Assembly: GCA_964621085.1 (NCBI GenBank) | Contig: CAZUKY010000006.1 | Location: forward strand, 1-52,542 | Direction: 5' to 3' | DNA from: an uncultured Gammaproteobacteria bacterium | GTDB taxonomy: Bacteria > Patescibacteriota > Patescibacteriia > JACQRZ01 | Length of the DNA stretch: 52,542 bases | Part shown: in pieces, positions 4,303 to 52,542 of the stretch | Layout of the letters: the number at the start of each line of letters is the position of its first letter | How positions within the stretch are numbered: the stretch's first letter is position 1 | Translations under genes and position numbers: made by a program | The notes under the pieces: generated by a model | The model's input: only the letters and a program-made list of their open reading frames with translations | Databases searched by the model: none | Told to the model about the DNA's origin: nothing

Positions 4303-4444
4303 TTGGCGCGTGCCAAGAGATCGTAAGGGCATTCGGATCTGCGCGTCACTGGATAGCAAAGGGGCGTTTCGGGCGACCCGCTGCGAGGCAGAGGGTTGTT
4401 CTCCTACGCCGTTTTCACGCGTCTTTGTTTGTAGCGCTTATCGT

Positions 4445-5143: not shown

Positions 5144-5148
5144 GCGTC

Positions 5149-8450: not shown

Positions 8451-8508
8451 ACAGGGTATATGACGGATCGGGGCAGATGTCCTTATTCCTGTGCTACAAT
8501 ATCTCCAT

Positions 8509-9684: not shown

Positions 9685-9705
9685 GTGAGATAGGGGACAT
9701 GTTTC

Positions 9706-20872: not shown

Positions 20873-21640
20873 ATGCGGCCGATTTGGTCAGGATCGATCA
20901 GTTTTGGTCTCGTGAACATCCCAGTCAAACTGTACAGTGCTATCGACGAGGGCGGGTTGGACTTCGACCTGATCCACGCGCGGGACAACGGGAGGATTCG
21001 GTATGCACGCATGTGCCGTGCGGAGGAGAAGGAGGTTCCATGGAATGAGATCGCAAAAGGATATCAGTACCGCGAGGCGGAATATGTCGTGCTGACCGAT
21101 GAGGATTTTGTTCGCGCAAACGTTTCCAAGCAGAGCGCAATCCGCATTGCCGAGTTTGTCGACGAGCGAGCGGTCGAAAGCGTGTATTATGAAAAGCCGT
21201 ATTATTTGGAGCCGGAGGGCGGGGCAGACACGGCATACGCTCTCTTGCGTGACGTTATGCGGACTGCCGGAAAGGTCGGGTTGGGGACGTTCGTGATGCG
21301 TCAGCGGGAAAAACTCGTCATTATCCAACCGCGCGGGAAAGGCATTCTTTTGGAGCAACTGCGTTTCGCTCAGCAGATTCGCGGCATGGATACGCTGCAT
21401 CTTCCCGCCGAAGAAACGGAGAAGCGTGCGCGTGACATGGCCCTGAGCTTACTTGAAAAAATGGCAGCGCCGTTTGATCCCGCAAAATATCGGGATACCT
21501 ATACCGATGAGTTGCTTGAGATCATCGCCGAAAAGGCGAAGGGAGTGCCGATCGTTCCGCGCGGCGAGGTTCCACAGCCTACGCCCGTTGCAAATCTCAT
21601 GGAAATGCTCAAAGCGAGCCTGGAGCAGGACCGGCGATAA
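20873..21640 (+). CDS. ku: Non-homologous end-joining protein Ku
   Basis: MRPIWSGSISFGLVNIPVKLYSA is the canonical bacterial Ku N-terminus. 255 aa. Confidence 0.92.
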   Translation: MRPIWSGSISFGLVNIPVKLYSAIDEGGLDFDLIHARDNGRIRYARMCRAEEKEVPWNEIAKGYQYREAEYVVLTDEDFVRANVSKQSAIRIAEFVDERAVESVYYEKPYYLEPEGGADTAYALLRDVMRTAGKVGLGTFVMRQREKLVIIQPRGKGILLEQLRFAQQIRGMDTLHLPAEETEKRARDMALSLLEKMAAPFDPAKYRDTYTDELLEIIAEKAKGVPIVPRGEVPQPTPVANLMEMLKASLEQDRR

Positions 21641-21650
21641 CCCTGTCGTT

Positions 21651-25789: not shown

Positions 25790-27130
25790 TTAGAGCCCCA
25801 CACCCCTCCGTTGCCACTTTTGCCATTTGCACTCCTCGCCGCGGAGGAACCCCAGTACCGACTTCATAAGCGAGTAATACTCGACGACGGTCGTCAGATA
25901 AAACAGAAGCCAGCCGATTGGCGCAAGAAGGACGAATGAGAGTCGGCGGCTTTCCTTGTTGTCGAAAAGAATCTGTACCATGAACATGGATGAGACGACG
26001 ACAAGTCCGGAGATAAATGATGAAAAATTCTGCGTCACCGCAGAGTAATAGTAGAGAAATCCGAGAAAAAAAATCTCCAAAAACAGCTGTACTTCGGCAA
26101 AGAGCGCAAGCGGCAAGATGATCCATGCCAAGATTTTGTTGTGCTTTTTATCGGTGCTGAAAAATAGGCCCCGATGCTCATTAAAAGTCTCGAATCTCCC
26201 GCGTTTCCACCGCAGCCGCTGCCGCAGCAAGCCGCGCACGTCGGCAGCGCCCTCCGTATAGATGACGGCGTCGGCTGCATAGACGATGCGCAAGCCACTT
26301 TTTTGAATGCGGACGGAAAGTTCGATATCTTCTGTAATATTGTGAACATTATACGGCCCGAGTTTTTCGAACACCTCGCGACGGAATGCTCCTGCCGCAC
26401 CGCCGATGATATAGATGGTGTTTAAGAGGGAGTCTGCTTTTTTGAAGTAGAACGAAAAGAGGAACTCAAGCGCCTGGATCGTCCCGAGAATCGTTTGGGT
26501 ATTGCCGATCTTCACGTTGCCGACCGCTGCGGAGACGGCGGGGTCGCGGAAGCAGTTCACGAAATGTGCGATAGCACCTTTCTCAACATAACAGTCAGCG
26601 TCAATTGAGACGATGATGTCTCCGGATGAGAGTCCGATGCCGGCATTCAGCGCACGGCCCTTGCCGCCGTTTTCTTTGTAGTGATAGACGATCTTCACGC
26701 GCTCTTCGCGAGGGGTTTTGCGCCGGTAGCGACGGATGAAGCGGCGAATGACGGCGTCTGAGTTATCGGTCGATCCGTCGTTGACGATGACAATCTCGAG
26801 ATTTTTATAGGTGTTATCGATGAGCGATTGAACCGTCGTTAATATTCCCACTTCCTCGTTCCACGCCGGAATGATCACTGATACCAATGGCCGGTAGTGA
26901 TTGGGAAACCGACAGTTATTCCATGCGACTGCCACGTCGTAGAGAGGCGAGAGTGTCATGTATAGGAAGTACTTCGTCAAAAGGACGGTCGCAAAAAAAA
27001 TGATGACGGTTCGCAGTGTGCCAAAGTCGTCCGTTTCTTTACCGCTGAGGGATACCGATGATACGAGAATTGCGATCGTAAAGAGATACAGCGAACTGTA
27101 CAGGAGCGCTTTCCTGGCTCTGTGTGACAT
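25790..27130 (-). CDS. Processive family-2 glycosyltransferase (cellulose/chitin/PNAG-synthase-like)
   Basis: VSVIIPAWNEE, DGSTDNS, DAD, and QRLRWKRG (QxxRW), flanked by N- and C-terminal TM helices. Confidence 0.88.
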   Translation of the reverse strand: MSHRARKALLYSSLYLFTIAILVSSVSLSGKETDDFGTLRTVIIFFATVLLTKYFLYMTLSPLYDVAVAWNNCRFPNHYRPLVSVIIPAWNEEVGILTTVQSLIDNTYKNLEIVIVNDGSTDNSDAVIRRFIRRYRRKTPREERVKIVYHYKENGGKGRALNAGIGLSSGDIIVSIDADCYVEKGAIAHFVNCFRDPAVSAAVGNVKIGNTQTILGTIQALEFLFSFYFKKADSLLNTIYIIGGAAGAFRREVFEKLGPYNVHNITEDIELSVRIQKSGLRIVYAADAVIYTEGAADVRGLLRQRLRWKRGRFETFNEHRGLFFSTDKKHNKILAWIILPLALFAEVQLFLEIFFLGFLYYYSAVTQNFSSFISGLVVVSSMFMVQILFDNKESRRLSFVLLAPIGWLLFYLTTVVEYYSLMKSVLGFLRGEECKWQKWQRRGVGL

Positions 27131-27350
27131 AATCGATTGAATCTTGCAGCCGGATCATGTTGATGAACAATTTTGCGAGGATGTTGGAAATAAGGATGAG
27201 AGAAATGAATATCCCGACCATTCTATATGATGAGTTAGTGAAGGTTTGCGCAATGCCTGCGAGCATGAAATAGGACAAAGCGATAACGCATGAGATCAGG
27301 AAAGCATGGAAGAGGAGGCGATACGGTATCGATGAGCGGTTCGTCGTCAT
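27039..27350 (-). CDS. Possible small membrane protein upstream of the GT2 gene
   Basis: 103-aa ORF with 2-3 hydrophobic helices. Its 3' end overlaps the GT2 start by 92 nt, which lowers confidence. Confidence 0.35.
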   Translation of the reverse strand: MTTNRSSIPYRLLFHAFLISCVIALSYFMLAGIAQTFTNSSYRMVGIFISLILISNILAKLFINMIRLQDSIDYVTQSQESAPVQFAVSLYDRNSRIIGIPQR

Positions 27351-27413
27351 ACTGTGAAGAAGGACCAGCTGTTATCTGATGGTAGTGACGAGAGAGCGCT
27401 TGCCTCCTTACGA

Positions 27414-27444
27414 ACAAAAAAACCTCCCCGGTCGGGAGGTTTTT
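27414..27444 (-). terminator. Intrinsic terminator after the lexA / Y-polymerase operon
   Basis: CCTCCC-cggtc-GGGAGG stem flanked by an A-run and a T-run. Read on the minus strand, the hairpin is followed by a T-run. Confidence 0.75.
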
Positions 27445-27463
27445 CCTTTGTACGCCTTTGCTG

Positions 27464-28774
27464 CTAGCTGACATCGCCGAAAAGAAATGGAATGCCGAGG
27501 CGTCGGCGGGCAGTTTCGCCGGCCAGCACTCTGCCGTGGCGCAGCGGGACATCGCCGCGATCGCCTTCATGCTGAGCGAATTTTTGCGCGGCAAAACTTG
27601 AACCCAAAAAAACGCTGTACTTTCCGTAGCGCTCGCGCAACCGATCGACGCCGTCATAGATACGCGACATTTTTTCTATCGCAAGATGCTGACCGAAAAG
27701 ATCGAGCTGGGCATTTACGTCCTCGGTGAGTTTTCCGAGTGTGACTCCGGTTGCGCGATACGCATGCCCCGGTTGATAAATGTCTGAAAAAATCTTTTCT
27801 GCAATGTCGATGACTTTATTGGGGAATGCCGTTGGGCGGGAGAGGGTGATGCGCATTCCGAAATGGCGGAAGTCCTGCGTGCGAAGCACGAACGATACCT
27901 CGCGCGGCGCCAGCCGGTGCCGGCGGGCTTTGATGCAGGCATTTTCGATATTCTTCGAGAGTTGCGAAAAGACGAATGACGCATCGCTTGTCGGCGGCGT
28001 GAAGGTTTTGAATTTTTGGATCGAGACGGCGGTCCGCTTCTCGTCGGTGCACACATCCATGACAGCTCTGCCGCGCAACTCTTGCCAAATCTCGTAGAAC
28101 GGCTTGGATAGCCGGTCTTTCACCCAGTCTTCGCTCATGCGCGCAAATTGCAGCGCTGTCCGGATACCGAATTTGGCGAGATACGCACTCGTTTGCGGTC
28201 CGATGCCCCAGACCTTTTCGATCGGCAACTCTTTCAGATAAAGGTGGATGTTCTTGCCGGCTATTGCCGTGAATCCCGCCGGCTTTCGCCACTTCGATCC
28301 GATCTTTGCAATCACCTTCGTCGGCCCCAGGCCGATCGAAAAGGTGCAGCCGAGTTCTGTCGCAAGGTCGCGTTGGATCGCTTGGGCGATCTCCTGATAG
28401 GACATCCTCAGTGGACGACGGAGTCCAGTAATGTCAGCAAAACACTCATCAATACTATATTCTTCCACAGCAGCAGTCCTGCGGCGGACAATGGAGAAAA
28501 ATCGTTTTGAATAGATGCTGTAGGTTTCATAGTCGGAGGGGAGGATTATGGCGTCAGGACACACTTTTAAGATTTCGAAGATGCGCATGCCGCGGGTCAC
28601 GCCGCGCGCTTTCGCTTCATAGCTCATCGATGCGGCGATGCCGCGCTCCTTGCCGGTGACGACCGGCTTGCCCTTGAGCGAGGGATCGCGTGCCTGTTCG
28701 CACGAGGCGAAAAATGCGTCGCCGTCGATGTGAAGAATCGCCCTGGGAAAAGAGGAGATGGAGAGGGGAGACAT
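27464..28774 (-). CDS. Y-family DNA polymerase (DinB/UmuC-like translesion polymerase)
   Basis: ILHIDGDAFFASCEQ N-terminal catalytic motif, SIDECFADIT, and a 436-aa length. Directly downstream of lexA. Confidence 0.9.
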   Translation of the reverse strand: MSPLSISSFPRAILHIDGDAFFASCEQARDPSLKGKPVVTGKERGIAASMSYEAKARGVTRGMRIFEILKVCPDAIILPSDYETYSIYSKRFFSIVRRRTAAVEEYSIDECFADITGLRRPLRMSYQEIAQAIQRDLATELGCTFSIGLGPTKVIAKIGSKWRKPAGFTAIAGKNIHLYLKELPIEKVWGIGPQTSAYLAKFGIRTALQFARMSEDWVKDRLSKPFYEIWQELRGRAVMDVCTDEKRTAVSIQKFKTFTPPTSDASFVFSQLSKNIENACIKARRHRLAPREVSFVLRTQDFRHFGMRITLSRPTAFPNKVIDIAEKIFSDIYQPGHAYRATGVTLGKLTEDVNAQLDLFGQHLAIEKMSRIYDGVDRLRERYGKYSVFLGSSFAAQKFAQHEGDRGDVPLRHGRVLAGETARRRLGIPFLFGDVS

Positions 28775-28778
28775 AGGG

Positions 28779-28800
28779 TTAGCTTATTAGCTGATTAGCT
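28779..28800 (-). repeat. Three tandem 8-nt units (AGCTAA-nn on the coding strand) between lexA and the polymerase gene
   Basis: Plus strand reads TTAGCT-ta-TTAGCT-ga-TTAGCT. On the minus strand the three TAA triplets fall in all three reading frames. Confidence 0.6.
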
Positions 28801-28819
28801 TGTAGGAGTTATGGCCGTA

Positions 28820-29392
28820 CTACTGGTATTTGCGGATGACACCCTTCACAATCGCTGCGATCTTGAGTTCCTCCTTCGGTACAATGGGAGAGTACTTGCT
28901 GTTTCCCGGAAGGAGGACGACTTTGCCGCCTTTCGTGTGGAAGTACTTCATGGTCCACCCCTGGTCCACTTCCGCAATGACGATGTCTCCCTCATGCGGA
29001 TGGCCGCCTCGCTCGGCAAGGACCATGTCACCGGGGAGAATTCCCGCCTCAATCATCGAGTCGCCGCTGACAGTGAGCATGAAGGTCGCTTCTTTTTTTT
29101 CAATAAGGAAATCGTCGAGATTCATTGTGTCGATCAGCTCTTCTTCGGCAGCGGATGGGAATCCCGCCTCTACCGTACCGAGCAGGGGAATGCCAGTCAT
29201 CAAGGGGCCGGGCAGAAGCTTACCGCCGCGGTCTTTTTCCAAAAACCCGGTCTCGAGAAGTTTTTGCACCAATTTGACCGCGGCGTTTTTCGACTTGAAT
29301 CCGACCAAGTCCGCAATCTCCCGATAGGACGGCATGCGGCGTTTTTCTTCAAAGAACTCTGAAATTTTTTTCAAAGATTTTTTCGGATCCAT
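28820..29392 (-). CDS. lexA: LexA repressor (S24 self-cleaving peptidase)
   Basis: N-terminal winged-helix domain (PSYREIADLVGFKS), cleavage-site region VEAGFP, Ser nucleophile in SGDSMIEAGI, and C-terminus GVIRKY. Confidence 0.92.
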   Translation of the reverse strand: MDPKKSLKKISEFFEEKRRMPSYREIADLVGFKSKNAAVKLVQKLLETGFLEKDRGGKLLPGPLMTGIPLLGTVEAGFPSAAEEELIDTMNLDDFLIEKKEATFMLTVSGDSMIEAGILPGDMVLAERGGHPHEGDIVIAEVDQGWTMKYFHTKGGKVVLLPGNSKYSPIVPKEELKIAAIVKGVIRKYQ

Positions 29393-29427
29393 ATCCTCCT
29401 TTTAAAAAATATCTTTAGCGCACTCCT

Positions 29428-29456
29428 ATGGTAGTGTACGATCGTACACCTGTCAA
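29428..29456 (-). promoter_or_regulatory. lexA promoter with a candidate SOS box filling the -35/-10 spacer
   Basis: Minus strand reads TTGACA-GGTGTACGATCGTACAC-TACCAT. The 16-bp perfect palindrome GTGTACGATCGTACAC (29434-29449) occupies the 17-nt spacer. GGAGGA Shine-Dalgarno precedes the ATG at 29392. Confidence 0.65.
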
Positions 29457-29645
29457 TGTGGATAAGTTTTATGAGAGATAGAAAGACTTTTCAATGATTT
29501 TAAAACAGAAAAAGAATGGTACTCGTCTTTTTTACCAGTATAAAAATGCTGCAGCAGCAATTTGCATTGCAGGTGGCGCTACGATACGCTGAAAACGGAA
29601 TTAAGGTCGGTGTATAATTAATTAGCAATGATCACTGGAGATTGT

Positions 29646-30503
29646 ATGCACACGACACGTCATATCAATTCAATCATCAAATTAAACAATGGCATTGAAA
29701 TGCCTGTTGTGGGATTGGGCGTCTATAAAATGCAGGAAGGAGAAGAGGTGGAGAATGCGATACTCGATGCCCTTGAAGCGGGATATCGGATGATAGATAC
29801 GGCCGCGGTATACGGAAACGAGGAAGGAGTCGGTAGAGCGATAAAAAAATCTGGTCTTCCTCGCGAGGAAGTATTCGTGACGACAAAACTCAAACGTATT
29901 GAGTCGGGGTACGAGAGTGCGCTTGCGGCAATCGATGCGTCGCTTGAAAAGCTTGGTCTTTCCTATGTTGATCTTTATTTAATCCATTGGCCAAGCGCGA
30001 GTGAAGATCATGCAGAGACGATCAATAGGAGAGAGGAGACGTGGCTTGCAATGGAGAAAATTTATCGACTGGGAAAGGCGAGAGCGATCGGTGTTTCTAA
30101 TTACCTCGTACGGCATCTTGAAGAAATGAAAAGATATGTCCATATAATGCCCGCAGTGAATCAGGTCGAATTTCATCCCTTCCTCTATCAAAGAGAATTG
30201 CTGGATTATTGCAACCAGAATGGAATACGGTTGCAGGCATATAGCCCCCTGGTCAAAGGAAAGAAAATGAATCATGAAGTTCTCACTGGCATTGCCGAAA
30301 GGTACGGCAAAAGCGTTGCACAGATCCTTATTCGGTGGAGTATACAGAAAAGCTGTGTTGCCATCCCCAAGTCAATCCATAAAGATAGAATCAAAGAGAA
30401 TATCTCGGTTTTTGATTTTGAAATAAGTGATGATAATATGAATCTCATTGACAGCCTTAATGCAGATGAGCATTTTGCGTGGGACCCAACGCCGATATTA
30501 TGA
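29646..30503 (+). CDS. Aldo/keto reductase (2,5-diketo-D-gluconate reductase-like)
   Basis: LNNGIEMPVVGLGVYK, IDTAAVYGNEE, and HWP motifs. The ATG at 29646 has a GGAG upstream. TGTATAAT extended -10 at 29611-29618. Confidence 0.88.
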   Translation: MHTTRHINSIIKLNNGIEMPVVGLGVYKMQEGEEVENAILDALEAGYRMIDTAAVYGNEEGVGRAIKKSGLPREEVFVTTKLKRIESGYESALAAIDASLEKLGLSYVDLYLIHWPSASEDHAETINRREETWLAMEKIYRLGKARAIGVSNYLVRHLEEMKRYVHIMPAVNQVEFHPFLYQRELLDYCNQNGIRLQAYSPLVKGKKMNHEVLTGIAERYGKSVAQILIRWSIQKSCVAIPKSIHKDRIKENISVFDFEISDDNMNLIDSLNADEHFAWDPTPIL

Positions 30504-30639
30504 TATCTGTAGTTATCGGACATAGTACATCTCTTGCAATTTTTACATCTTTGAGATACTCTATCCTCGCTGTAAAAAGAGTCGGTACGAATGCCGACCA
30601 CTTGATTCTTCAAGTTCGATGCAGCAAGGAGGTTCACTC

Positions 30640-31140
30640 GTGAAGCGCAGGACAAAGACTCTGATGGAGGTTAAGTTTGTCCCAGAGGATTGGATGGGGC
30701 CCCAGTTGAAGGTTCGGACTTCGAGCAAGCCATCGTTCCTTCTTCGCGGCTATTTATACGCTACCTCATACGGAAGATACGGGGAAATCCAAGCTGCTCT
30801 GATGGGTTCGCTCAAAGGACTTGACCTGAACTCTGGCAGAGAAGATAGGTACTTTACTAAAGCCGAGAGGGCGTTCCTCGAAAAATGCAGCAACGCTCTC
30901 GGTCGCACGCAGCTATCTTACAAGGGGACTCGCATAGTACTTGCATTCCGCCTCGAAAACGGCGAATCATTCTGCGAAACGGCCATTGAGTTGATCCTTG
31001 CCTTCGAAAGACTCCTTGGTATTGAGCCTCGGTTCAAAATCACGGAACTAAGCCAGGAAACGGAGGTTTATCTGGATAGATCCTGGATACCGTACGCTCA
31101 ATACTTGGAGCAGAAGTTCGTGAAGTTGCTGGCTACCTAG
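30640..31140 (+). CDS. Hypothetical protein (no recognisable family)
   Basis: GTG at 30640 lies 6 nt after AAGGAGG, in frame with track ORF 30619..31140. 166 aa, soluble. Confidence 0.6.
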   Translation: MKRRTKTLMEVKFVPEDWMGPQLKVRTSSKPSFLLRGYLYATSYGRYGEIQAALMGSLKGLDLNSGREDRYFTKAERAFLEKCSNALGRTQLSYKGTRIVLAFRLENGESFCETAIELILAFERLLGIEPRFKITELSQETEVYLDRSWIPYAQYLEQKFVKLLAT

Positions 31141-31253
31141 ACTGAAGTCGGGAAGTCATCACAAAGATCGCGGATTTCTTCTGCCACGACAACCCCGGAA
31201 TCCGGCGTTTCGAATGGGCGGATCGGCCGAACGGCTGGTCTGCCCTGGATCTT

Positions 31254-31296
31254 TATTAAAAAAAGGAGCCCGCCCCGGAGGATTCGGAGCGGGCGC
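31254..31296 (-). terminator. Intrinsic terminator for the 31304..32464 gene
   Basis: GCCCGC..CCG / CGG..GCGGGC interrupted stem. The preceding A-run on the plus strand becomes a T-run after the hairpin on the minus strand. Confidence 0.7.
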
Positions 31297-31303
31297 TTGG
31301 GAG

Positions 31304-32464
31304 CTAGTGCTTTTTGACCGTGACGACCTCTTCGAGTCCGTTGGGTCCGAAGACGGTCGCCGTGACCGTAAGAGGGTTCTCAGGCGACGTCCAGCGCTCG
31401 AGGTGGCGGCGGACCCTGCCGGCCACGTCCTTCCCGAGTTCGATGGAGCATTTATCGTCGAGTTGAACAAGCATCTCGACTTTCCAAAGACTTGAGTCTT
31501 TTTCGTCCTCTTTTTCGTCCTGCAGTAAGACATCGTACTCGATCGTGCCGAGAACGTACTCGGTCTTGCCGATCTCCCTTGAATCCCGTGACGAAAACTT
31601 CTTGTAGTCTTGCATGTCGGTAGTGAGGTCCGAAATGGAGTCATCGAGAAGAGCCACTCGATTCGCCAACGCACTGACAAGAGAATGTGCGGATGGTGAT
31701 TGCTCGCCCGGCGAAAAGTCTCCGAGTATCTGTCTGGATGCCATGAGCGTTCGCAGTCGAGCAAGCCAGGCCCTGTCCTCGGCCATCGAGCGGGCAAACA
31801 TTGCGCGAACCTCGTCAAACATTGCCTGCCCCATCCAGAACAGATTGCCTTCGATATCAGTCGAATGCCGTATCTTATCCTTTAACGCTTTCAGGCATTC
31901 CTCGACGGCTTCCGGTGACATCTTGTCATACTTTCTGTGGAGCATGAGGTTGCAAAGCCTGAAGTTGAGGATATTCCTGGCTTTGCGTGCCTCATCTCCG
32001 CGAAAGTAAAGACCACTGCCTGTATAATTATATCTATTCCAATCCTCAAGCGTATGCATGAACAGGCGCTTGAACGTCCCCTGGAAGAGCCACTGCTTCT
32101 GCAACTTCTTTTCTTTTGGGTAAGAACGGCTGTTCTCATCGGTGACCATGATCTCGTGATGACCCGGCAGGACCCAGCAGAGCCATCGAAGATACCCGTA
32201 GAAAGGGTTCTCGCGGTTCTCGGCGGACTTGGGGCAAAGCCCCTTCTCGAGCATGTCCAGGTAGACGTTCAACTCGGCCTCGTCAAGCGCGACGATGGCG
32301 GGCATGCAGAGATTGTTGTGAAAGTACGTGATAACCTCGGTTTCAGAGAGTCCCAAGAGGTCCCGCTCGAACATGCGCCGTGTCGCCTGATCAAGGCGAA
32401 TGCCGCTATGCCGATCGTAAAGCGCACCAAGGAACGGGATCTCGACGAGAGCTTTACCGGTCAT
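31304..32464 (-). CDS. Hypothetical protein, 386 aa (no recognisable family)
   Basis: Long ORF with protein-like composition. The internal ATG at 32464 (MTGKALVEIP) has a better-spaced GGGAGA than the ATG at 32503. Confidence 0.7.
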   Translation of the reverse strand: MTGKALVEIPFLGALYDRHSGIRLDQATRRMFERDLLGLSETEVITYFHNNLCMPAIVALDEAELNVYLDMLEKGLCPKSAENRENPFYGYLRWLCWVLPGHHEIMVTDENSRSYPKEKKLQKQWLFQGTFKRLFMHTLEDWNRYNYTGSGLYFRGDEARKARNILNFRLCNLMLHRKYDKMSPEAVEECLKALKDKIRHSTDIEGNLFWMGQAMFDEVRAMFARSMAEDRAWLARLRTLMASRQILGDFSPGEQSPSAHSLVSALANRVALLDDSISDLTTDMQDYKKFSSRDSREIGKTEYVLGTIEYDVLLQDEKEDEKDSSLWKVEMLVQLDDKCSIELGKDVAGRVRRHLERWTSPENPLTVTATVFGPNGLEEVVTVKKH

Positions 32465-32661
32465 TATGACGTTTCTCCCGCGGTCGTAACCGCACACGCC
32501 CATACCCCCTCGTAAGGGACATATCGCCGTCGCGGTGCGACCACTCCTTCGTAAAGAAGCGCGATATGGGGCAGCACCATGACGTGTCGATCCTAGGCAA
32601 AATTAACTTTGCTGTCAACAGTTTGCAGTCAGCGCCGTTTTTTTGTAAGGTTGAGAGAGCT

Positions 32662-33261
32662 ATGACAATCCATAATCTCATCGCGTTCATGCAGCTTCTC
32701 CTTGCAGTGCAGCAGGTGAGGCGCCGCTCGTTTGCCAATGGCGAGGATCGGAAGGAAAACGATTCCGAGCACCAGTACCAGCTTGCCATGACGGCATGGT
32801 ACGTAATTCAGGCCGAAGGGCTTGATCTGGATATCAGTCGCGCGATCCAGTATGGGCTTGTCCATGATATGGTTGAGGTGTATGCGGGCGATTTCTGGGT
32901 GTATGGCAGTCGCCTTGGCAAAGAGGAGCGCGAGCGCGAAGCGGGCGAGCGGCTCAAAAAAGAATTCCCCGACTTTCCCGCTCTCCATGACCTGATTGAG
33001 AAATACGAACAGCGCTCCGACCGCGAGAGCGTTTTTGTTTATGCCCTCGATAAATTGATCCCGATCGTGAACATTTACCTGGATGGGGGCAGATCATGGA
33101 AGGAGTGCGGCGTCACCCGCGACATGCTCATCGAAAACAAGACGGAAAAAATCGCTTGCTCGCCGGAAGTGACGCGATACTTCAAAGAAATTATCGCCAT
33201 CCTAAAAAAAGAAGAGCCGGAACTCTTTGCGGTGCAGCAAAAGGAAGAGATTCAGCTGTAG
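32662..33261 (+). CDS. HD-domain phosphohydrolase (YfbR-like 5'-nucleotidase type)
   Basis: ATG at 32662. ENDSEHQYQL (His) ... LVHDMVEVYAGD (HD) ... YALDKL pattern typical of HD_3-type proteins. Confidence 0.8.
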   Translation: MTIHNLIAFMQLLLAVQQVRRRSFANGEDRKENDSEHQYQLAMTAWYVIQAEGLDLDISRAIQYGLVHDMVEVYAGDFWVYGSRLGKEEREREAGERLKKEFPDFPALHDLIEKYEQRSDRESVFVYALDKLIPIVNIYLDGGRSWKECGVTRDMLIENKTEKIACSPEVTRYFKEIIAILKKEEPELFAVQQKEEIQL

Positions 33262-33279
33262 AAAATAGGAATCAGAGAA

Positions 33280-33720
33280 ATGAAAACAAAAAACATCTAT
33301 CGCTATCCGATCTCCCTCGAAAAAGTCACTGGTATCCAAAACGATTCAATAGCGCATACCGGCGATCTTGTTCATAGTATCGATTTCGATGCGCCGGAAG
33401 GCACAGACGTTTTTGCTGCGCTCGATGGTACGGTTGTGGAAGTAAAGGATGATTCGAATGTCGGGGGCGATGATCCGTCATTTGAGCAATATGGCAACTA
33501 CATCGCTATTCTGCATAAAAACGGGGAAGTATCGGAATACGAACACTTGCTTTACCGTTCCGCGCACGTGAAGGTCGGGGATTGCGTTGTTGCGGGACAG
33601 AAAATCGCCAACGTTGGAAATACCGGATACAGCGAGTGCCCCCATTTGCATTTCATGGTGTATCCGGAAGACAAGAAATATACTTCACTCTGGAGATACG
33701 ATTTGATCATTCGGAAATAG
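33280..33720 (+). CDS. Peptidase M23 family protein, no signal peptide
   Basis: VHSIDFDAPEGTDVFAALDGTVV, NYIAILHKNG..EYEHL, and VGNTGYSECPHLHF (HxH). Confidence 0.8.
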   Translation: MKTKNIYRYPISLEKVTGIQNDSIAHTGDLVHSIDFDAPEGTDVFAALDGTVVEVKDDSNVGGDDPSFEQYGNYIAILHKNGEVSEYEHLLYRSAHVKVGDCVVAGQKIANVGNTGYSECPHLHFMVYPEDKKYTSLWRYDLIIRK

Positions 33721-34336
33721 ATAGGCTTGCGCACGTCATCTGGGACTACATGCTCATGCATCACGAGCTCAAACCCATGGATGCAATCTTTGCGCTGGGT
33801 TCCAATGATACATCGGTCGCTGAACGTGCGGCGGAACTTTATCTTCAAGGATACGGCAAACATCTCATCTTTGCCGGAGGCAATGGCAAGGCATCGGATC
33901 TCCCAAAGCCAGAGGCTGAAGTGTTTGCAGACATAGCCATCGCAAAAGGAGTTCTGCAGGATACAATCATCATCGAAAACAAGTCTTCAAACACAGGCGA
34001 GAATGTCCAATTCGTCAAAAAGCTGCTTCAAGACAAGGGTCTTGGTCTCAAATCCTTCCTCCTTGTGCAAAAGCCCTACATGGAGCGCCGCACGTACGCG
34101 ACCTTCCGTAATGGCCCGATGCAGAATGCATTGTCACGTCACCGCAGATATCCTGTGAGGAATACGGCAGGGAGGAGGATTTTAAGAAGCGATACATAAA
34201 CGTAATGGTTGGCGATCTGCTGCGCATTCGCGAGTACCCAAAGCTTGGTTTTTAAATCGAACAGGAGATTCCTGAAGACGCATAGAACGCAGGGCAGCGA
34301 CTGCTTGAGCTCGGTTTTAACAAATATAAGTTATGA
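33717..34336 (+). pseudogene. Decayed DUF218/YdcF-like gene (frameshift plus two in-frame stops)
   Basis: DAIFALGSNDTSVAERAAELYLQGYGKHLIFAGGNG...ENKSSNTGENV...LLVQKPYMERR matches YdcF. The homologous reading shifts from frame 0 to frame 2 near 34108-34112 (WPDAECIVTSPQ...). It then hits TAA at 34253 and TAG at 34283. The likely start codon position reads ATA (33717). Confidence 0.75.
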
Positions 34337-46057: not shown

Positions 46058-46193
46058 CTGGGACGAGAGAGGATTGCAGGACACAAAAGACTTATACACA
46101 GAAAAGTCCTCCTGACGAGTTTTTTTAGGTATATACTAGGTGTATGTATGAGGCATACACCACATCCTCGTATCCTTTATTATTTTGATACGT

Positions 46194-46220
46194 GAAAACG
46201 TTGACGCGTTTTCTTTTTTT
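46194..46220 (+). terminator. Terminator-like hairpin 16 nt upstream of the giant gene's ATG
   Basis: GAAAACG-ttgacg-CGTTTTC followed by TTTTTTT. Confidence 0.5.
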
Positions 46221-46235
46221 ATTCAAAGGAACTTT

Positions 46236-49200
46236 ATGAGCACTCGAGCACGGCGTTTTCGTTCGCTCCAAGCGGCGATCTACCACCTTACCATCGCCTC
46301 CATGCTTGCTTGGTCCCTGGGGCCAGCCGGCGTCCATGCCCTCGTGAATTCGGGCGCATTCAGCATTTTTTCTCAAGACCAGACGATCAGCCCGTTGAGC
46401 TCGTCAACGGCTGTCTTGGAGTTTGTTTCGGAACGAACCAGTCAGGATACCATTCATGAGGTCCGAGTGAATGTTAATCCGTCAAACGGTTTTGATCCAA
46501 ATACTGACCTTTCCCCGATCAGGACTGACGAGCAGTCGGGTATCGCGTTATACAAGGATGTTGACGGGGTTGGCGTAGCCGGCGAGTTCGAGGCGACAGA
46601 TACCTTTTTGCCTCTTGGTTCTACCGCTCAACCGCATCGCGTCGGAAAGATCACGCCTACTGGGACGACAACACTTGCGACGCCCGGCGCGCTCAATCTT
46701 TCTGCCGGAGACCTCGTGTTTACAAAAATCGGTTCTGGCGGATCGCTTTCCGTAACAGGTGCAGCGCCGTTTGAAGAATACGCATGGCACATGGTAACGA
46801 CGGGTGGCACCGGCACAACTGCACGGTACGATGGAGCTCCCAATGCCCCCTTATATACGGGCGATCGGATCAGTGCGAGCAACCGTTTGAGTCAGTTCAC
46901 GCCGGACCAGACAGGGGCATTCACTGTGCCGGCAAGCGGCGCAATCACGCAAAACGGCACGTACGCAACGCCCGCACTTGGCGATATCGTCGCGTACACG
47001 GTTGGCGTATCTTCGATGCGCTGGGGTTTGGTGACAAATAGTACCCTGCAAGCGGGAAGTTTTGCGGTCAATGGCCGCGTGCTTGCCGCAGGCACGTACC
47101 GGATCAGCAAGCTGACTGGCGCGTCAAGTACCTATACCGTTCCTTCTTCTGGCTCGGTCACAACCGGTGGAACAGTCAATACATATGCCAACCCGGCACT
47201 CGGCGATATTGTCTTATTTCAGCAAGGGACATCGGTTGCTCGATGGGGAATCGTCACAAACGCGACGTTGGACAATGGGGTGGGCGTTTTTGCCATTAAC
47301 GGCACGCCGCTTCCTCTCGGCAGCTATCAGATTAGCAAATTGACACAGTTTACGCCGCTTGGTGCCTCCACGGATGATAGTGGACTGGCAATCAGCGCGG
47401 GAGATCTTCTGCTTGGCATGATTACGAAAAATCCCCGCAATCCAAAAGTGGATTGGAATGTGGTTACCACGGGGGCGAGCGGCGTTGCATCAAACACGCT
47501 CCGAATCCAGGACGCTACCGAACCCCCCATTTTCGGGCATCATCGGTCCCTTCTTCCAAGTGCAGCTGTTGTGAGACTGACGCCGACACAGACGACGTTG
47601 AATAACACCCCGACCCTTACTGTCGCTGTCGGAGACATTGTTCTGAATTCAAAGACAGCAAGTGTAACCACATATGATACGCGCGCGTCCGAGTGGCAGA
47701 TGGTAACAACAGGCGGAGAAGCGGGAGTATTGAAGCCTGCGCGTATCAATGGATCATCTCTGAGTGATAAGGCGGTGTACAGCACCGGTCCCCTGAGTAT
47801 TTTTAGCCCGACTGCGCGCGCCATTCTTACGGTGCCGGGGGAAGGTACTGTGACCGTGGATAGCGGCGACTATACCGTGCCGGCTGTGGGAGATATCGTA
47901 TTGTATCAGACCGGCAATAATGTTGCGGCAAAATGGGGCATCGTTACGAATGCGACACTGACGAATGGTGCAGGCGTTTTTGCCATCGACGGAAAGCCGC
48001 TTGCCGCCGCGACGTACCATGTCAGCCACGTTGCCGGCCAGTCGAGTGCATTCACTGTCCCAATTTCAGGTGATGTTGTGAAGGGAGGGGGTGTTGATAC
48101 GTACGCGAATCCTACTCTTCACGATCTCGTTTTAGTGCAACGTGGGGCAGAACAGGCTGAATGGGGCATCTTAACGGATACGACGCTGACGAACGGCGCC
48201 GGCCTTTTTTCCGTCAATGGAACGCCATTAGCCCCAGGATCGTACCGTATCAGCAAACTCACGGCATATAATCCGACAACAGCGCTCGTCAGCGATCCCA
48301 ACCTCCTCCTGACGGCCGGTGACGCGTTCTTCGCCCTCACGACCGACTTTCCAAAAAAGCACGCCTACGACTGGAATATCGTATGGACGGGCGCAACCGG
48401 CGTTTCAAGTTCGGCATTGCGGCTGAGCGATATTTACAAGGCATCATCGGCCGCGCGCGCATTGGCAGCGCCGCAATTCGGATCCGTTGCGCAGCTGGTG
48501 CTTCAAACTCCGGACGAGCCGCAGCTGAGTGAGTTTGGCGTCCATATTGACGATAGCTACTATGTCGTAGCGCGTACCGGAGCGACGGCGATGGCAGGAC
48601 GGTCATTTTATATAGGAATGGGATCTGATGCAGTTCTTTTTGACGGACCGCGTTTCATCTCTGGAGACAAAGATGGTGCAAGTGCTGGATTTACCGTTTC
48701 CGGCAATGAGATTGGTGTCCAGTCGATAGCTTCCCAGTCGCAAACGCTCGGAGCAGCGAGTCAGCCGACACCGATTCTCGGCATGAATCTTAACCAAGCC
48801 GGGTCCTTGATGAAGCGAGTGCGTGTTTCCGTCTTGCCTTCAAACGGATTCGTTTTGGGAGACCTTGCCGCACTCGGAGGAGACCAGAGCTCGGGAATAG
48901 CGCTATATCGCGATAACAAGGTTCCCGGACAGGGAACGCAGGGGGTGTTTGATGCCGCAGTTGATATGGTTTTGCCTGCCGGAGTGCAAGCGGTCCAGCA
49001 GCGCTTTGCCAAGCTCACGCTTGGAGGGACGAGGATATCAACGGTTCCAGTGAGCGGCAACTTCCCGACTGAGGACATGAACGTTTCGGTTGGCGATATC
49101 CTGTTTGCAAAAATCGGCCATGCAACCGCCAGCAACCTTGCCGACCAGCGTTACGAGTGGCATCTGGTGAAATCCGCCGGCAACCTGAAAACGGGCGGGG

Positions 49201-52200
49201 GATGGGTCTACGGCCGCGGTTCATTGGGCGATGCAAAATTCACTAACTCATCGCGCGTGACCCGACTCGTTCCGGAATCGACGGGAGAATACGTTATCAA
49301 CGGCACAAGCAACACGATTCCCAGCGCCCTTGCTGTTGGCGATATCGTATTGGCATATCATGAAGATACTGACTCGAGAGCTAACTTGGCGAACATCTCA
49401 GATCGGAAGGATCCGCGCCCGCAATGGGGAATTGTAACAGCATCATTCAGTGGTACTGTTGCTCAGATCAATGGAAAGAACCTACGGGACGGGACGCATC
49501 GGATCAGCAAACTCGGGTCGCTGACAGCTTCGATCACCGTCAACGGTTTGAATGCGATTACCCCTAATGGAACTTACACCACGCCGAGCGTTGGGGATAT
49601 CGTTTTGTATCAAAAAGGGACGGAGGATGTGCGGTGGGGCACCGTGACGGCCTTGGCGCTGGAAAACGGTTCTTTCGCCATTAATGGTCTTCCGCTTGAG
49701 GATGGCACCTGGCGCATCAGCAAGTTGGATAACGCAGACAGTACTTTGTACGGCGCCATGAGCGAGACGGTTGAGAATGGGCAATATGTCATCAATACGG
49801 GCGATGTCGCCTTTGTGAACACCGCGTCGAATCCGATGCGTCCCGTATTTGATTGGCACATGGTGACGACGGGTGGGACCGGCGCAGCATCGGCCGCATT
49901 GCGTCTGGACGATCAGCAAAGTGCCCCCTCGTATACGCAGGTTATCATCATCACTCCCAATGCGCCCGAAATGCTTCCCAACGATGATATTGGCGCAAAT
50001 GCAGGATCAGACTTTTTCCTGGCAGCCAGAACCGCAAACAATCCGGGACACGGCCGCAGCTTTGCGCTGCGCCTTGGCCCGGCAGACGTGGTGCTGACGG
50101 CAAACAGTCCCCGCCACACGCCAAGCGATGTCACTTCTGCAACCCATTCCATCAATAATCCGCCCCTTTCGTTTTCCGGCGGCGGCCCAGGGAACGGCAA
50201 TAGCTCCGTACCGGTCGAAGCACTTATCGATATTACGGCAAACCAAGATCTGAATGGCGCGACGGTCACGACAGCGAACGTGCGGCTTCAGAAGTGCGCC
50301 GGCGCGTCGGATGCGAGCGCCTGTGCAACGCCAGAAGAGGCAAACCTGTGCGCATCGGTCGGATTGCTCAACAATCGAAATATACGTTGCAACCTCGCGG
50401 AAAATACGCGTCTGGAAAAAAATACCACGTATCGGTTTACGGTTGCGACAGGCGTCCAGGGCGCAACAAATGGATCCTCGCTTGCGCAAGACCTTTCGCG
50501 AATCTTCCGCACCGCCTCGATCGATCCGAACGAGACGGGCGGCATCACGACGCCGCTTCGCGTCATGGACTTTTTCCCGCAAGCTGGTGCCTCCAACGTA
50601 CCGCTCAACGTCAAGCTTGTCGCGCTCTTTGAGAAGTTCGGGCCCGAGGGCGATTTGAAGGCCGATGGGAGCGCACAGGCGATCAACAATCTTGCGAATG
50701 TCTCTTTGCGGCTCGTTGCCAATTTCGCTCCGACCGGCGATAACCTACTGACAAACGCCAACCAGCTCGCGTGGAGTTCGCAAGGGCGCTTTCTGGCGGT
50801 AACACCTCCGCAAAACCTTTCCGCGCAGACGCAGTATGATTTCTGCATCAGGGCGGCGCTGCAAAACACCCAAGGACAGGCACTCGGTTCGGATCGATGC
50901 ATCCGTTTTACGACCGGAACGAGCGCAGATACGACTGCTCCCGCTTTGCGCACGACCAATCCAACCTCCCCGGCCGCAGGAGAACAAAACGTCAACCGCT
51001 TTATTGAGCGGATGGAACTTGCATTCAGTGAGGCACTTAACCCTTCTACGGTTACGTCAAATACTGTCCGTCTCTATATCGACAATGGGGCGGATGGCGG
51101 TACGGCAAGCGACGGAATCCGCAACGGCGCAGAACCGACGCTTGGCTCGAACGAGCTCTCGCTCTTCTTCGACCAGCGGCGAATGACGGCAGTCCTTGGT
51201 CCGACAACACCCCTTCTTGCCGCTACGCGCTACTGTTTCGAAGTAACAACGGGTGTGACCGATGTCGTCGGGAACGCGCTCGCTGCCGCGAGCCAGGACA
51301 AATGCTTCACGACCGGCAATCAGACTGACACAATCGCGCCAACAGTGGTCTTTGCGGATGCGAACAACTTTTCGCTTGCCGTTGCTTTTTCGGAAGCCGT
51401 CCGTTTTTCTGATGCTACAACAGGAACGAACTACAGCCTTTCCTGTCCTGTCGGCAATACCGTCAAATTGGACGGCAAACCGATTCAATACATGCCAGAC
51501 AGAAAAGAGGCCATCATAACAAATCTTGGCCTGCCGACAGGTCAGGACTGCGAATTGACGATCTCGGGCATCAAAGATCTTGCAGGGAATACGATGCAGC
51601 AAGCAACATCGGCGTTTAAGGTAAAGGACGCAGCAACCGAGAGTTTCGTCGGCGGCGGCGGGGCTTCGGAGGACTTCCATACAGGAAAGAACTTTGCCGA
51701 GTTCGCGAGAAATCCCGAGTACTGCGGGCCGGCAAACAGGGGTGCGGGCGCGACAACTCCGTTCGGGTGTGAGTTCCCGGCACCCTCAGCGTTGCCGGTC
51801 GGGTCGAGCTTTACACTGCTCTTGCCATCGGGATTCGATGCGTCGGGCGCATCGAAAGACGCATTCATGAGCAAAGATCTGAACGGTCCGAACGGACCGG
51901 GCGAACCCTCGTTTACCGTTACAAGCGCGAGCGGTTCCACGATTGTTTTGACGACAACAGGAGCTGCCATTGCCCAGGGTGAACGGCTCATGTTCAGGTT
52001 GAACGGCATTGTGAATCCGACGACGCCAAAAACCGATCAGCGAGTGAGCGTTGTTATAAAAGATGAGAACGGTAAGACGCAAAAAACCATAAGTACCGCG
52101 CCGTTCAGTATTGATCAGGCTGGAAGCCGAAGTATTGTTGTGAATGTATACAAGGACACGAACGGCAACAAACAGAAGGACGCAAACGAGGGTATTGAGA

Positions 52201-52542
52201 ATGCAAAGGTCTTCTGTGACCAGCGCGGATCATTCGGCGGCGGCGGATTTTCCGGACACCTCGAGGCGACGACGAACAATCAGGGTGTTGCGACATTCGC
52301 GGGCGTCCACGATGGAGAATACGGCTGCGGCCTCCAATATGATCCGACCGCATTTGCCGATCTGCAATCCGAAGGAGATTTTCAGACGGCTTTCGTGAAT
52401 GGACAGAACGCGACGCTGGATATCCGCTTCAAAGACCTTTCGGCGACCGGCCGCAGCCTTGCTGCATCGATCACGAGCTCGGCAGCGCTCTCGAGCGAGA
52501 AGGTTGACGTGTTCTGCCACGCGGGCGGGTTTGGCACCGAGT
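46236..52542 (+). CDS. Giant secreted repeat protein, >2,100 aa, 3' end beyond the window
   Basis: I translated frame 0 from the ATG at 46236 to nt 52542 and found no stop. The nearest upstream in-frame stop is at 46149. From 49873 onward the track's plus-strand ORFs lie only in frames 1 and 2 (46784..47041 is also frame 2), consistent with a stop-less frame-0 ORF. Signal-like N-terminus MSTRARRFRSLQAAIYHLTIASMLAWSLGPAGVHA. Conserved internal repeats hold this frame throughout. Confidence 0.85.
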   Translation, partial: MSTRARRFRSLQAAIYHLTIASMLAWSLGPAGVHALVNSGAFSIFSQDQTISPLSSSTAVLEFVSERTSQDTIHEVRVNVNPSNGFDPNTDLSPIRTDEQSGIALYKDVDGVGVAGEFEATDTFLPLGSTAQPHRVGKITPTGTTTLATPGALNLSAGDLVFTKIGSGGSLSVTGAAPFEEYAWHMVTTGGTGTTARYDGAPNAPLYTGDRISASNRLSQFTPDQTGAFTVPASGAITQNGTYATPALGDIVAYTVGVSSMRWGLVTNSTLQAGSFAVNGRVLAAGTYRISKLTGASSTYTVPSSGSVTTGGTVNTYANPALGDIVLFQQGTSVARWGIVTNATLDNGVGVFAINGTPLPLGSYQISKLTQFTPLGASTDDSGLAISAGDLLLGMITKNPRNPKVDWNVVTTGASGVASNTLRIQDATEPPIFGHHRSLLPSAAVVRLTPTQTTLNNTPTLTVAVGDIVLNSKTASVTTYDTRASEWQMVTTGGEAGVLKPARINGSSLSDKAVYSTGPLSIFSPTARAILTVPGEGTVTVDSGDYTVPAVGDIVLYQTGNNVAAKWGIVTNATLTNGAGVFAIDGKPLAAATYHVSHVAGQSSAFTVPISGDVVKGGGVDTYANPTLHDLVLVQRGAEQAEWGILTDTTLTNGAGLFSVNGTPLAPGSYRISKLTAYNPTTALVSDPNLLLTAGDAFFALTTDFPKKHAYDWNIVWTGATGVSSSALRLSDIYKASSAARALAAPQFGSVAQLVLQTPDEPQLSEFGVHIDDSYYVVARTGATAMAGRSFYIGMGSDAVLFDGPRFISGDKDGASAGFTVSGNEIGVQSIASQSQTLGAASQPTPILGMNLNQAGSLMKRVRVSVLPSNGFVLGDLAALGGDQSSGIALYRDNKVPGQGTQGVFDAAVDMVLPAGVQAVQQRFAKLTLGGTRISTVPVSGNFPTEDMNVSVGDILFAKIGHATASNLADQRYEWHLVKSAGNLKTGGGWVYGRGSLGDAKFTNSSRVTRLVPESTGEYVINGTSNTIPSALAVGDIVLAYHEDTDSRANLANISDRKDPRPQWGIVTASFSGTVAQINGKNLRDGTHRISKLGSLTASITVNGLNAITPNGTYTTPSVGDIVLYQKGTEDVRWGTVTALALENGSFAINGLPLEDGTWRISKLDNADSTLYGAMSETVENGQYVINTGDVAFVNTASNPMRPVFDWHMVTTGGTGAASAALRLDDQQSAPSYTQVIIITPNAPEMLPNDDIGANAGSDFFLAARTANNPGHGRSFALRLGPADVVLTANSPRHTPSDVTSATHSINNPPLSFSGGGPGNGNSSVPVEALIDITANQDLNGATVTTANVRLQKCAGASDASACATPEEANLCASVGLLNNRNIRCNLAENTRLEKNTTYRFTVATGVQGATNGSSLAQDLSRIFRTASIDPNETGGITTPLRVMDFFPQAGASNVPLNVKLVALFEKFGPEGDLKADGSAQAINNLANVSLRLVANFAPTGDNLLTNANQLAWSSQGRFLAVTPPQNLSAQTQYDFCIRAALQNTQGQALGSDRCIRFTTGTSADTTAPALRTTNPTSPAAGEQNVNRFIERMELAFSEALNPSTVTSNTVRLYIDNGADGGTASDGIRNGAEPTLGSNELSLFFDQRRMTAVLGPTTPLLAATRYCFEVTTGVTDVVGNALAAASQDKCFTTGNQTDTIAPTVVFADANNFSLAVAFSEAVRFSDATTGTNYSLSCPVGNTVKLDGKPIQYMPDRKEAIITNLGLPTGQDCELTISGIKDLAGNTMQQATSAFKVKDAATESFVGGGGASEDFHTGKNFAEFARNPEYCGPANRGAGATTPFGCEFPAPSALPVGSSFTLLLPSGFDASGASKDAFMSKDLNGPNGPGEPSFTVTSASGSTIVLTTTGAAIAQGERLMFRLNGIVNPTTPKTDQRVSVVIKDENGKTQKTISTAPFSIDQAGSRSIVVNVYKDTNGNKQKDANEGIENAKVFCDQRGSFGGGGFSGHLEATTNNQGVATFAGVHDGEYGCGLQYDPTAFADLQSEGDFQTAFVNGQNATLDIRFKDLSATGRSLAASITSSAALSSEKVDVFCHAGGFGTE
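46701..47513 (+). repeat. Protein-level super-repeat 1 (units A-B-B-C) of the giant protein
   Basis: A 46701-46820 (GDLVFTKIG...EYAWHMVTTGG). B 46971-47114 and 47193-47342 (GDIVxx...RWGxVTNxTL..G.FAxNG..L..GxYxISKL). C 47394-47513 (GDLLLG...VDWNVVTTGASGVASNTLRIQD). Confidence 0.7.
47622..48431 (+). repeat. Protein-level super-repeat 2 (A-B-B-C)
   Basis: A 47622-47726 (GDIVLNSK...SEWQMVTTGG). B 47880-48032 and 48111-48260. C 48312-48431 (GDAFFAL...YDWNIVWTGATGVSSSALRLSD). Confidence 0.7.
49083..49913 (+). repeat. Protein-level super-repeat 3 (A-B-B-C)
   Basis: A 49083-49199 (GDILFAKIG...YEWHLVKSAG). B 49326-49514 and 49584-49727. C 49794-49913 (GDVAFVN...FDWHMVTTGGTGAASAALRLDD). Confidence 0.7.
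50208..51623 (+). other. Four consecutive SbsA/Big_5-like Ig domains within the giant protein
   Basis: Domain starts at about 50208, 50553, 50928 (DTTAPALRTTNPTSPAAGEQNV...LAFSEALNPSTVTSNTVRLY) and 51327 (DTIAPTVVFADANNFSLAVAFSEAV). Each ends in a ...GNxL/...FTTG-type strand. Confidence 0.55.
52131..52334 (+). other. SdrD-B / Cna-B-like domain within the giant protein
   Basis: SIVVNVYKDTNGNKQKDANEGIENAKVFCDQ...ATTNNQGVATFAGVHDGEYGCGL matches the VxxDxNGNGxxDxxExGxxxVxV...TTxxxGxYxFxxLxxGxY pattern. Confidence 0.55.

Follow-up and report, generated by a model that had tools for sequence, protein, structure and literature searches.

Three A-B-B-C tetrads of one repeat unit, apparently inserted into a split host domain, near the signal-proximal end of a giant secreted protein

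What are the repeats that occupy the beginning of a very long reading frame at the end of contig CAZUKY010000006.1, how are they put together, and what might they do for the bacterium that makes them? The window, by which we mean the whole analysed stretch of 52,542 nucleotides (nt) of this contig (assembly GCA_964621085.1), ends inside a forward-strand frame that is free of stop codons from 46152 to 52541 and still open at the window end. The likely start is the ATG at 46236, with AAAGGAA just upstream; amino acid residues (aa) are numbered with this Met as 1, so that nt = 46236 + 3(aa-1).

46236..52541, + strand: 5' part of the gene for a giant secreted protein (stop-free frame, 2102 codons, running off the window end)

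An earlier note on this DNA had proposed that the protein contains a nested repeat, in which twelve short units, each with a GD dipeptide followed by a Trp-led segment, recur three times in the order A-B-B-C. Both the units and the tetrads were borne out. A regular expression for the unit gave 13 matches, all twelve units among them, whereas 2000 shuffles gave 0.001 on average and never more than 1. The GD motifs, whose residue numbers are given with each unit below, span nt 46707 to 49800.

46629..46889, + strand: tetrad 1, unit A1 (aa 132-218, GD 158)
46890..47111, + strand: tetrad 1, unit B1a (aa 219-292, GD 249)
47112..47321, + strand: tetrad 1, unit B1b (aa 293-362, GD 323; predicted local distance difference test score, pLDDT, of ~90 in AlphaFold model 2)
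47322..47537, + strand: tetrad 1, unit C1 (aa 363-434, GD 389; pLDDT 72-89 in AlphaFold model 2)
47538..47798, + strand: tetrad 2, unit A2 (aa 435-521, GD 466)
47799..48029, + strand: tetrad 2, unit B2a (aa 522-598, GD 552)
48030..48239, + strand: tetrad 2, unit B2b (aa 599-668; HD replaces GD at 629)
48240..48455, + strand: tetrad 2, unit C2 (aa 669-740, GD 695)
48993..49247, + strand: tetrad 3, unit A3 (aa 920-1004, GD 953; in AlphaFold model 1)
49248..49511, + strand: tetrad 3, unit B3a (aa 1005-1092, GD 1035; loop insert of ~14 residues)
49512..49718, + strand: tetrad 3, unit B3b (aa 1093-1161, GD 1120; in AlphaFold model 1)
49719..49931, + strand: tetrad 3, unit C3 (aa 1162-1232, GD 1189)

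The three tetrads can be aligned over their full length. BLASTP of the whole protein against itself returned the identity match only, and the comparison was done with overlapping 270-residue segments. In this form the internal periodicity was highly significant: tetrad 1 matched tetrad 2 with E 7e-55 and 46% identity, and tetrad 3 matched tetrads 1 and 2 with E 1e-31 and 6e-34, respectively. The blocks of 813, 810 and 831 nt that had been reported correspond to aa 156-426, 464-733 and 950-1226, from the 'xxGD' of A through the 'LRxxD' of C; their lengths are correct, though they were phased on the GD motif and lie about 25-30 residues 3' of the true unit border. In codon-aligned tetrads the protein identity is 36-44% and the DNA identity 48-51%, with third positions identical in only 32-40% of cases, and blastn between the tetrads finds nothing longer than patches of 21-70 nt. 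Third-codon identity of 0.32-0.40, together with such short patches, means that the tetrad duplications are old, in agreement with the earlier claim of a similarity visible at the protein level only. Unit B3a differs from the others in its insert (49338-49440, …DTDSRANLANISDRKDPRPQ), which lengthens the loop from GD strand to Trp strand by about 14 residues. Insertions are tolerated here, and the loop may be a variable surface.

Do A, B and C descend from a single ancestral unit, as a nested repeat would imply? Profiles of the window's own non-overlapping units, compared by hhalign, aligned A with B (P=3e-6) and A with C (1.6e-7), both in register; with these units alone, B and C gave no significant match. 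Our first hhalign matches between B and C had been an artefact of shared flank residues, and were replaced by the non-overlapping comparison and by a flank-trimmed one. For the latter, family-wide profiles were made from 23 A, 40 B and 77 C units out of 87 homologues, with flanks trimmed and no residues shared. All three pairs then matched (A with C, P=3.6e-19; B with A, 2.2e-7; B with C, 7e-7), with GD on GD and W on W in each, and in B with A also 'FAING' on 'LRLDG'. A MAFFT alignment of 140 units gave the common pattern SRxSKLxP ... T..V ... L.. GD.V[FL] ... W[GH].VT ... [FL][AR][IL][ND]G ... Y.[IV]SK. Thus A, B and C are one all-beta unit of about 70 residues, diverged from a common origin. 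Its layout reads as a strand, the GD turn, a strand, a loop, the Trp-led strand, a short 'FAING/LRLDG' strand, and a 'RISKL' strand that continues into the next unit.

The earlier note had also picked out a 'head' segment at 46461 and 48819 and a 'tail' segment at 48534 and 50010, and took them as elements flanking the tetrads. The segments are real and lie at these positions, and a BLASTP comparison that includes the heads (aa 40-269 against aa 827-1070) gave E 1e-21. Their flanking status did not hold. Hidden Markov models (HMMs) of the window's head and tail, the latter covering aa 750-825, match many other proteins in which the two halves are adjacent (e.g. P0034, P0036, P0037, P0042 and P0016; 22 proteins besides the window's). 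An HMM of 144 positions, built on 29 contiguous head-tail copies, finds the window protein in separate halves (i-E, independent E-value):

46437..46661, + strand: host domain copy 1, N-terminal half, the former 'head' (aa 68-142; HMM positions 3-76, i-E 5e-20)
48498..48710, + strand: host domain copy 1, C-terminal half, the former 'tail' (aa 755-825; HMM positions 78-128 on aa 755-805, i-E 5e-6)
48798..49022, + strand: host domain copy 2, N-terminal half, the former 'head' (aa 855-929; HMM positions 4-77, i-E 2.9e-18)
49935..50150, + strand: host domain copy 2, C-terminal half, the former 'tail' (aa 1234-1305; HMM positions 72-141, i-E 1.6e-14)

Since a model of contiguous copies matches the window protein in halves, head and tail are parts of one split domain, which we call the host domain. 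From the sequence, the tetrads read as insertions at about position 77 of this domain, two of them in copy 1 and one in copy 2, and the linkers between tetrads and host halves are a few residues only. The host domain gave no significant match against Pfam or PDB sequences. Nested insertion, in which one domain is grafted into a loop of another, is a familiar arrangement in multidomain proteins. The architecture here is alike in that a complete module splits the host into two conserved halves; it is unlike in that a repeat of four units is inserted, in one case twice over in a single loop to make eight. The host domain is also found free of inserts and repeated in other giant proteins (P0010, P0014, P0021, P0026 and P0029, up to 7236 aa); in P0010, as many as five of each half were mapped.

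If the tetrad is inserted as a whole, is four also the number in which the unit occurs elsewhere? Arrays were mapped with second-round HMMs in the 87 homologues and the window, and counted as complete only if they were clear of the protein ends. Exactly four units were present in 24 of the 32 complete arrays; the others comprise one of eight (the double tetrad of the window), four of three, two of two and one of one. The order A-B-B-C, which had been described as fixed, is indeed kept throughout the window, but among the four-unit arrays CCCC (seven cases), BCAC (three), CAAC (two) and others occur beside ABBC (six). A-B-B-C is therefore one flavour of a general four-unit module. The positions within the module have kept their identity: units at the same tetrad position in different modules share mean identities of 0.30, 0.40, 0.47 and 0.33 for positions 1 to 4, more than pairs from different positions, and for 27 of 36 units the closest unit in any other module, across modules and proteins, has the same place in its tetrad. 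The claim that the order was maintained is thereby upheld. There is also a likeness between positions 1 and 4 (0.27) and between positions 2 and 3 (0.38). The rule of four and this position-specific likeness argue that the tetrad is an evolutionary unit, and it is probably a structural unit as well. Two short proteins, P0028 (361 aa) and P0040 (330 aa), do not follow the rule of four: they consist of a signal or linker, three units in the order B-B-A and a C-terminal transmembrane helix, and represent minimal membrane-anchored repeat proteins.

Among 1.84 billion representatives, a profile of head, tetrad and tail retrieved no more than 85 proteins with E <= 1e-3. The best relative, P0003 (4962 aa), was found with a profile E of 2.5e-167, and by BLASTP it is 31% identical over 919 residues. 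In P0004, P0005, P0006 and P0008 a single head-ABBC-tail module spans aa ~60-510, immediately behind an N-terminus similar to that of the window protein. Where a source is named, it is Candidatus Uhrbacteria for P0005 and P0006, Candidatus Doudnabacteria for the P0007 cluster, or just 'bacterium'. When 185,579 species genomes were scanned with the B-unit alignment, three loci came up, one in Uhrbacteria, one in Doudnabacteria and one on a 5.5-kb contig that had been binned as Gammaproteobacteria, none of them showing synteny with the window's upstream genes; a single-protein query over the species genomes found no locus. Relatives are thus rare and, among the named sources, limited to lineages of the Candidate Phyla Radiation (CPR), and the bacterium behind the window is probably a member of this radiation as well. 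The 5.5-kb contig (CAYJLM010000103.1, 5550 nt, labelled 'uncultured Gammaproteobacteria') has the N-terminal head-tetrad module too, at about nt 485-2317 with 39% identity to window aa 4-446; it is probably mis-binned, because all other named sources are CPR lineages.

Arrays of the CCCC type have a different setting. P0001 carries one together with LamG and CBM_4_9 domains, and P0013 carries one in a protein with a tail-fibre-type C-terminus (PHROG tail fibre, 2e-17). In two loci with four C-type units each, L001 (P0001 at 2979-5345) and L005 (P0009 at 7940-10972), the neighbourhoods are similar: both have a NifU-like gene, an adjacent or fused LamG (Laminin_G_3), RHS/YD-shell toxins and transposases, and L005 has in addition radical-SAM genes as well as a separate protein with LamG/CBM_4_9. 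A 614-residue open reading frame (ORF) that opens L001 and adjoins P0001 matches several PHROG tail-fibre families. These neighbourhoods may be a phage-tail-like or toxin-delivery cluster.

Does the unit belong to a family that is already described? The repeat region has no significant match in Pfam, NCBIfam or PHROG, and the repeat regions of the homologues are likewise without any Pfam match. When 138 units were scanned singly against Pfam with E up to 1, no family was found on more than three units, and the best E, 0.0056, came from a single unit; the unit maps onto no Pfam repeat, whether the whole protein or single units are searched. Against PDB sequences, the top match of the unit profile is the SH3 domain of amphiphysin-2/Bin1, aligned to the GD...W hairpin, with a non-significant E of 0.06-0.16.

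For AlphaFold, only P0001, P0002, P0005 and P0100 were usable as homologues and the alignments were shallow (6 rows for model 1, 22 for model 2). Model 1, of aa 840-1320, has a mean pLDDT of 57 with about 40% of residues disordered; its tetrad region lies mostly at 60-88 per ten-residue block. The predicted template modelling score (pTM) of 0.62 despite the disorder suggests a confident relative placement of the four units in the model. Model 2, of B1b and C1 (aa 287-440), has a mean pLDDT of 82.9. Each unit in it has a hairpin of GD strand and Trp strand plus short strands, which would be compatible with the five-stranded SH3 topology (RT loop, n-Src loop, distal hairpin), and two 14-residue strands (RISKLTGASSTYTV and GSYQISKLTQFTPL) span the unit borders. 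As modelled, the units are small beta-rich domains that are rigidly joined.

Foldseek against PDB and BFVD found nothing at E <= 1e-3. The best neighbours, all non-significant, are the N-terminal barrel of the V/A-ATPase B chain, domain 2 of EF-Tu, Uba1 barrels and phage tail-tube proteins. The closest is the Thermus V/A-ATPase B chain, with a probability of 0.80 and 24% identity over about 95 columns; the A/B barrel of V/A- and F-type ATPases and EF-Tu domain 2 nevertheless remain at E 0.2 or worse and a template modelling (TM) score of about 0.3, in a different biological context, and the resemblance is one between small closed beta structures only. A depolymerase of Klebsiella phage P560, the top Foldseek match of model 1 (E 1.4e-3, TM 0.2, root-mean-square deviation 7.8), was set aside, as its E was 0.72 with the better model. 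Tudor, chromo and KOW barrels have no Pfam match and are absent from the top Foldseek matches. An SH3/Tudor-like barrel, as guessed earlier, may fit the small beta-rich units of the models; no SH3 or Tudor family model of Pfam matches the unit.

What, then, could such a module do? The rest of the protein gives its setting.

46236..46340, + strand: signal-peptide-like N-terminus with W-S-L-G-P motif (read from the translation)
50928..51314, + strand: best of four Big_5 (bacterial Ig-like) stretches (aa 1565-1693; Pfam E 1.2e-27)

The N-terminus, MSTRARRFRSLQAAIYHLTIASMLAWSLGPAGVHA, consists of a positively charged stretch followed by a hydrophobic one ending in VHA, and reads by eye like a signal peptide; the first module follows directly on it. 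Big_5 is the sole Pfam family matched in the 2102 residues (E 1.2e-27), in four stretches of the C-terminal part; nowhere in aa 1-1310, repeat units included, is there a Big_5 match. Segment BLASTP shows further internal repeats 3' of the tetrads, at aa 1331-1731. The full-length relatives P0003 (4962 aa) and P0006 (3383 aa) have Big_5, CarboxypepD_reg and fn3, and PG_binding_1 at the C-terminus. The window segment is the signal-proximal part of a giant secreted surface protein, and by analogy this part would be the cell-distal end. The hydrophobic part of the N-terminus contains a motif, W-[ST]-[LFI]-G-P, that is common to the window protein, P0003, P0005, P0006, P0008 and P0018, in the variants MLAWSLGPAG, VIFWSLGPAV, MLWSLGPAA, VLWTLGPAA and LVWSFGPLS. 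The motif could serve as a sorting or processing signal specific to the family.

On these grounds we propose that the tetrad module is the projecting recognition or adhesion tip of a wall-anchored fibre, inserted in an out-and-back arrangement, and we give this proposal about an even chance of being right. An insert has to leave and re-enter the host domain at one point, and the linkers are short; for this reason the four units would fold out and back, with A and C side by side at the host domain and the two B units farthest from it. This arrangement, deduced from topology, is the most likely one, and it would explain the quasi-palindromic order, the conservation specific to each position, the rule of four, and the tandem duplication in the same loop. 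The module would be a stiff, protruding finger for recognising a partner surface or adhering to it, whether that surface is a cell envelope, a glycan or a protein. The finger would sit at the tip of a fibre whose stalk is made of Big_5, CarboxypepD_reg and fn3 domains, the Big_5 region 3' of the modules being presumably part of this stalk, and the C-terminal PG_binding_1 would hold the fibre on the producer's wall. Because the anchor is at the far C-terminus in the relatives, the module would project at the distal fibre end. The four-unit arrays beside LamG/CBM domains in tail-fibre-like proteins fit a role in recognition or adhesion.

Several observations weigh against this proposal. The window protein is cut at residue 2102, and the C-terminal anchor is seen in relatives only. 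The most conserved residues, GD and W, look like core or turn residues and not like a ligand site, and the unit has no significant likeness to any domain of known function in Pfam, NCBIfam, PHROG, PDB or BFVD. In AlphaFold model 1 the head and tail of the host domain have pLDDT below 50. The long straight strands at the unit junctions could equally mean an extended rod. Finally, the link to phage fibres is thin: tblastn of the CCCC array and the window tetrads against 50,697 deposited phage genomes gave no match, and a pattern scan of IMG/VR gave nothing.

The main rival explanation is that the units are purely structural and bind no ligand, serving as rigid beads that lengthen or stiffen the stalk, or as elements of a lattice like that of a surface layer (S-layer). 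The long continuous strands that link adjacent units in the model would suit such a role, as would invariant residues that look like core or turn, and the domains found in the protein or its relatives, Big_5 (SbsA-type Ig-like), CarboxypepD_reg, fn3 and PG_binding_1, are typical of envelope and S-layer proteins. The modules are confined, however, to the signal-proximal end, inside a loop and not along the stalk; their order and each of their positions are conserved individually, which exceeds the need of a spacer; and tail-fibre-like proteins also have these units in fours, beside LamG/CBM domains. We consider a purely structural role possible but rather unlikely.

Binding to the producer's own wall and an origin from phage tails are both less likely than the structural or lattice role. 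According to the latter idea, the module is a receptor-binding element of phage-tail origin, used for target-cell recognition, that moved into a cellular surface protein, or made the reverse journey. It derives from the CCCC arrays, namely from the tail-fibre C-terminus of P0013, and from P0001, which adjoins a gene with several PHROG tail-fibre matches and has RHS toxins nearby, P0009 having a similar neighbourhood. Neither the phage genomes nor IMG/VR contained the module, though, PHROGs gave no match to aa 1-1300 of the window protein, and the window neighbourhood consists of ordinary chromosomal genes, all of which makes a phage origin improbable.

The other idea starts from the GW modules (Listeria InlB/Ami) and SH3b, which are SH3-like wall-binding repeats of Gram-positive surface proteins, arranged in tandem and about 70-80 residues long. 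The units of the window are likewise tandem repeats of ~70-80 residues in a surface protein, and their succession of GD strand, loop and Trp strand aligns with a true SH3 domain, that of amphiphysin-2/Bin1, as the best PDB sequence match (E 0.06 at best). This match is not significant, however, and neither the protein nor any of the 138 units is matched by the SH3-type, GW or SH3b models of Pfam, even with E up to 1. SH3 is absent from the Foldseek top 50 of model 2 against PDB. The units have long shared strands and come in fours, unlike GW and SH3b, and the relatives already carry a PG_binding_1 anchor at the opposite end. Binding of the units to the producer's wall is accordingly more doubtful still. 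That the repeat is a compositional or low-complexity artefact, which the richness of the protein in T, S, G and A and the one or two proteins returned by each word-index homology search might have suggested, is refuted by internal E-values down to 7e-55, 0.001 motif matches in shuffles against 13 observed, 85 homologues matching in register, and a confident AlphaFold model of two units.

How does the proposed wall-anchored fibre with a recognition or adhesion tip compare with known surface proteins? The kind of system is not new, being an uncharacterised and unusual module in giant repeat-rich surface proteins of a familiar sort. A literature search on giant adhesins of CPR bacteria returned general giant-adhesin papers only. 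Giant adhesins generally have their ligand-binding region distal to the anchor (PMC5550230). The modular adhesins MpIBP of Marinomonas and SiiE of Salmonella resemble our protein in being very long and secreted, with a run of Ig-like extenders and a special module far from the anchor (PMC5550230, PMC6272769). Adhesins of the MpIBP/SiiE type are RTX proteins and substrates of the type I secretion system in Gram-negative bacteria, with an N-terminal anchor, whereas here the N-terminus is signal-like and the relatives have a C-terminal PG_binding_1. The tip module would differ as well, as it is an undescribed four-unit insert and no known lectin, ice-binding or vWA domain.

The findings give two families without a match in Pfam, NCBIfam, PHROG or PDB sequences, the unit of ~70 residues and the host domain of 144 positions. 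They also give an architectural rule, namely that units come in fours and are inserted at one loop. Together, the families and the rule yield concrete constructs for work on structure and binding. From the perspective of protein evolution, this is a clean case of a repeat module used as an insertable cassette and duplicated within the same loop. CPR bacteria presumably live fixed to other cells, by means that are largely unknown; giant surface proteins are obvious candidates. It is tempting to go one step further, and we do so tentatively, holding the following to be a minority prospect: the GD...W unit would be a small beta domain, so far undescribed, that functions solely in a closed, portable four-unit 'quartet', and the quartet would be the host-recognition tip of giant wall-anchored fibres in CPR episymbionts. 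Such an assembly could be grafted into a loop, where it was once doubled in our case, or could stand in a row next to the LamG/CBM domains of tail-fibre-like proteins. The interest of the system would be higher if the four-unit assembly and the host-recognition role prove true.

The remainder of the window is ordinary chromosomal DNA. The neighbouring genes encode Dus, a membrane-anchored cyclophilin, an extracytoplasmic function (ECF) sigma factor, ABC and P-type transporters, LigD and DinB, and no tRNA genes were found in the window. From 26000 to 34000 the G+C content is about 0.50, compared with 0.54-0.60 elsewhere in the window, and this part holds a family-2 glycosyltransferase, a DinB-type polymerase and several ORFs without a Pfam match. 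Two further features are unrelated to the repeats: P-type heavy-metal and cation ATPases are encoded at 9706-12360 and 16326-19019, and the ORF at 21453-23498 is a LigD-type fusion of an ATP-dependent ligase with a primase-polymerase.

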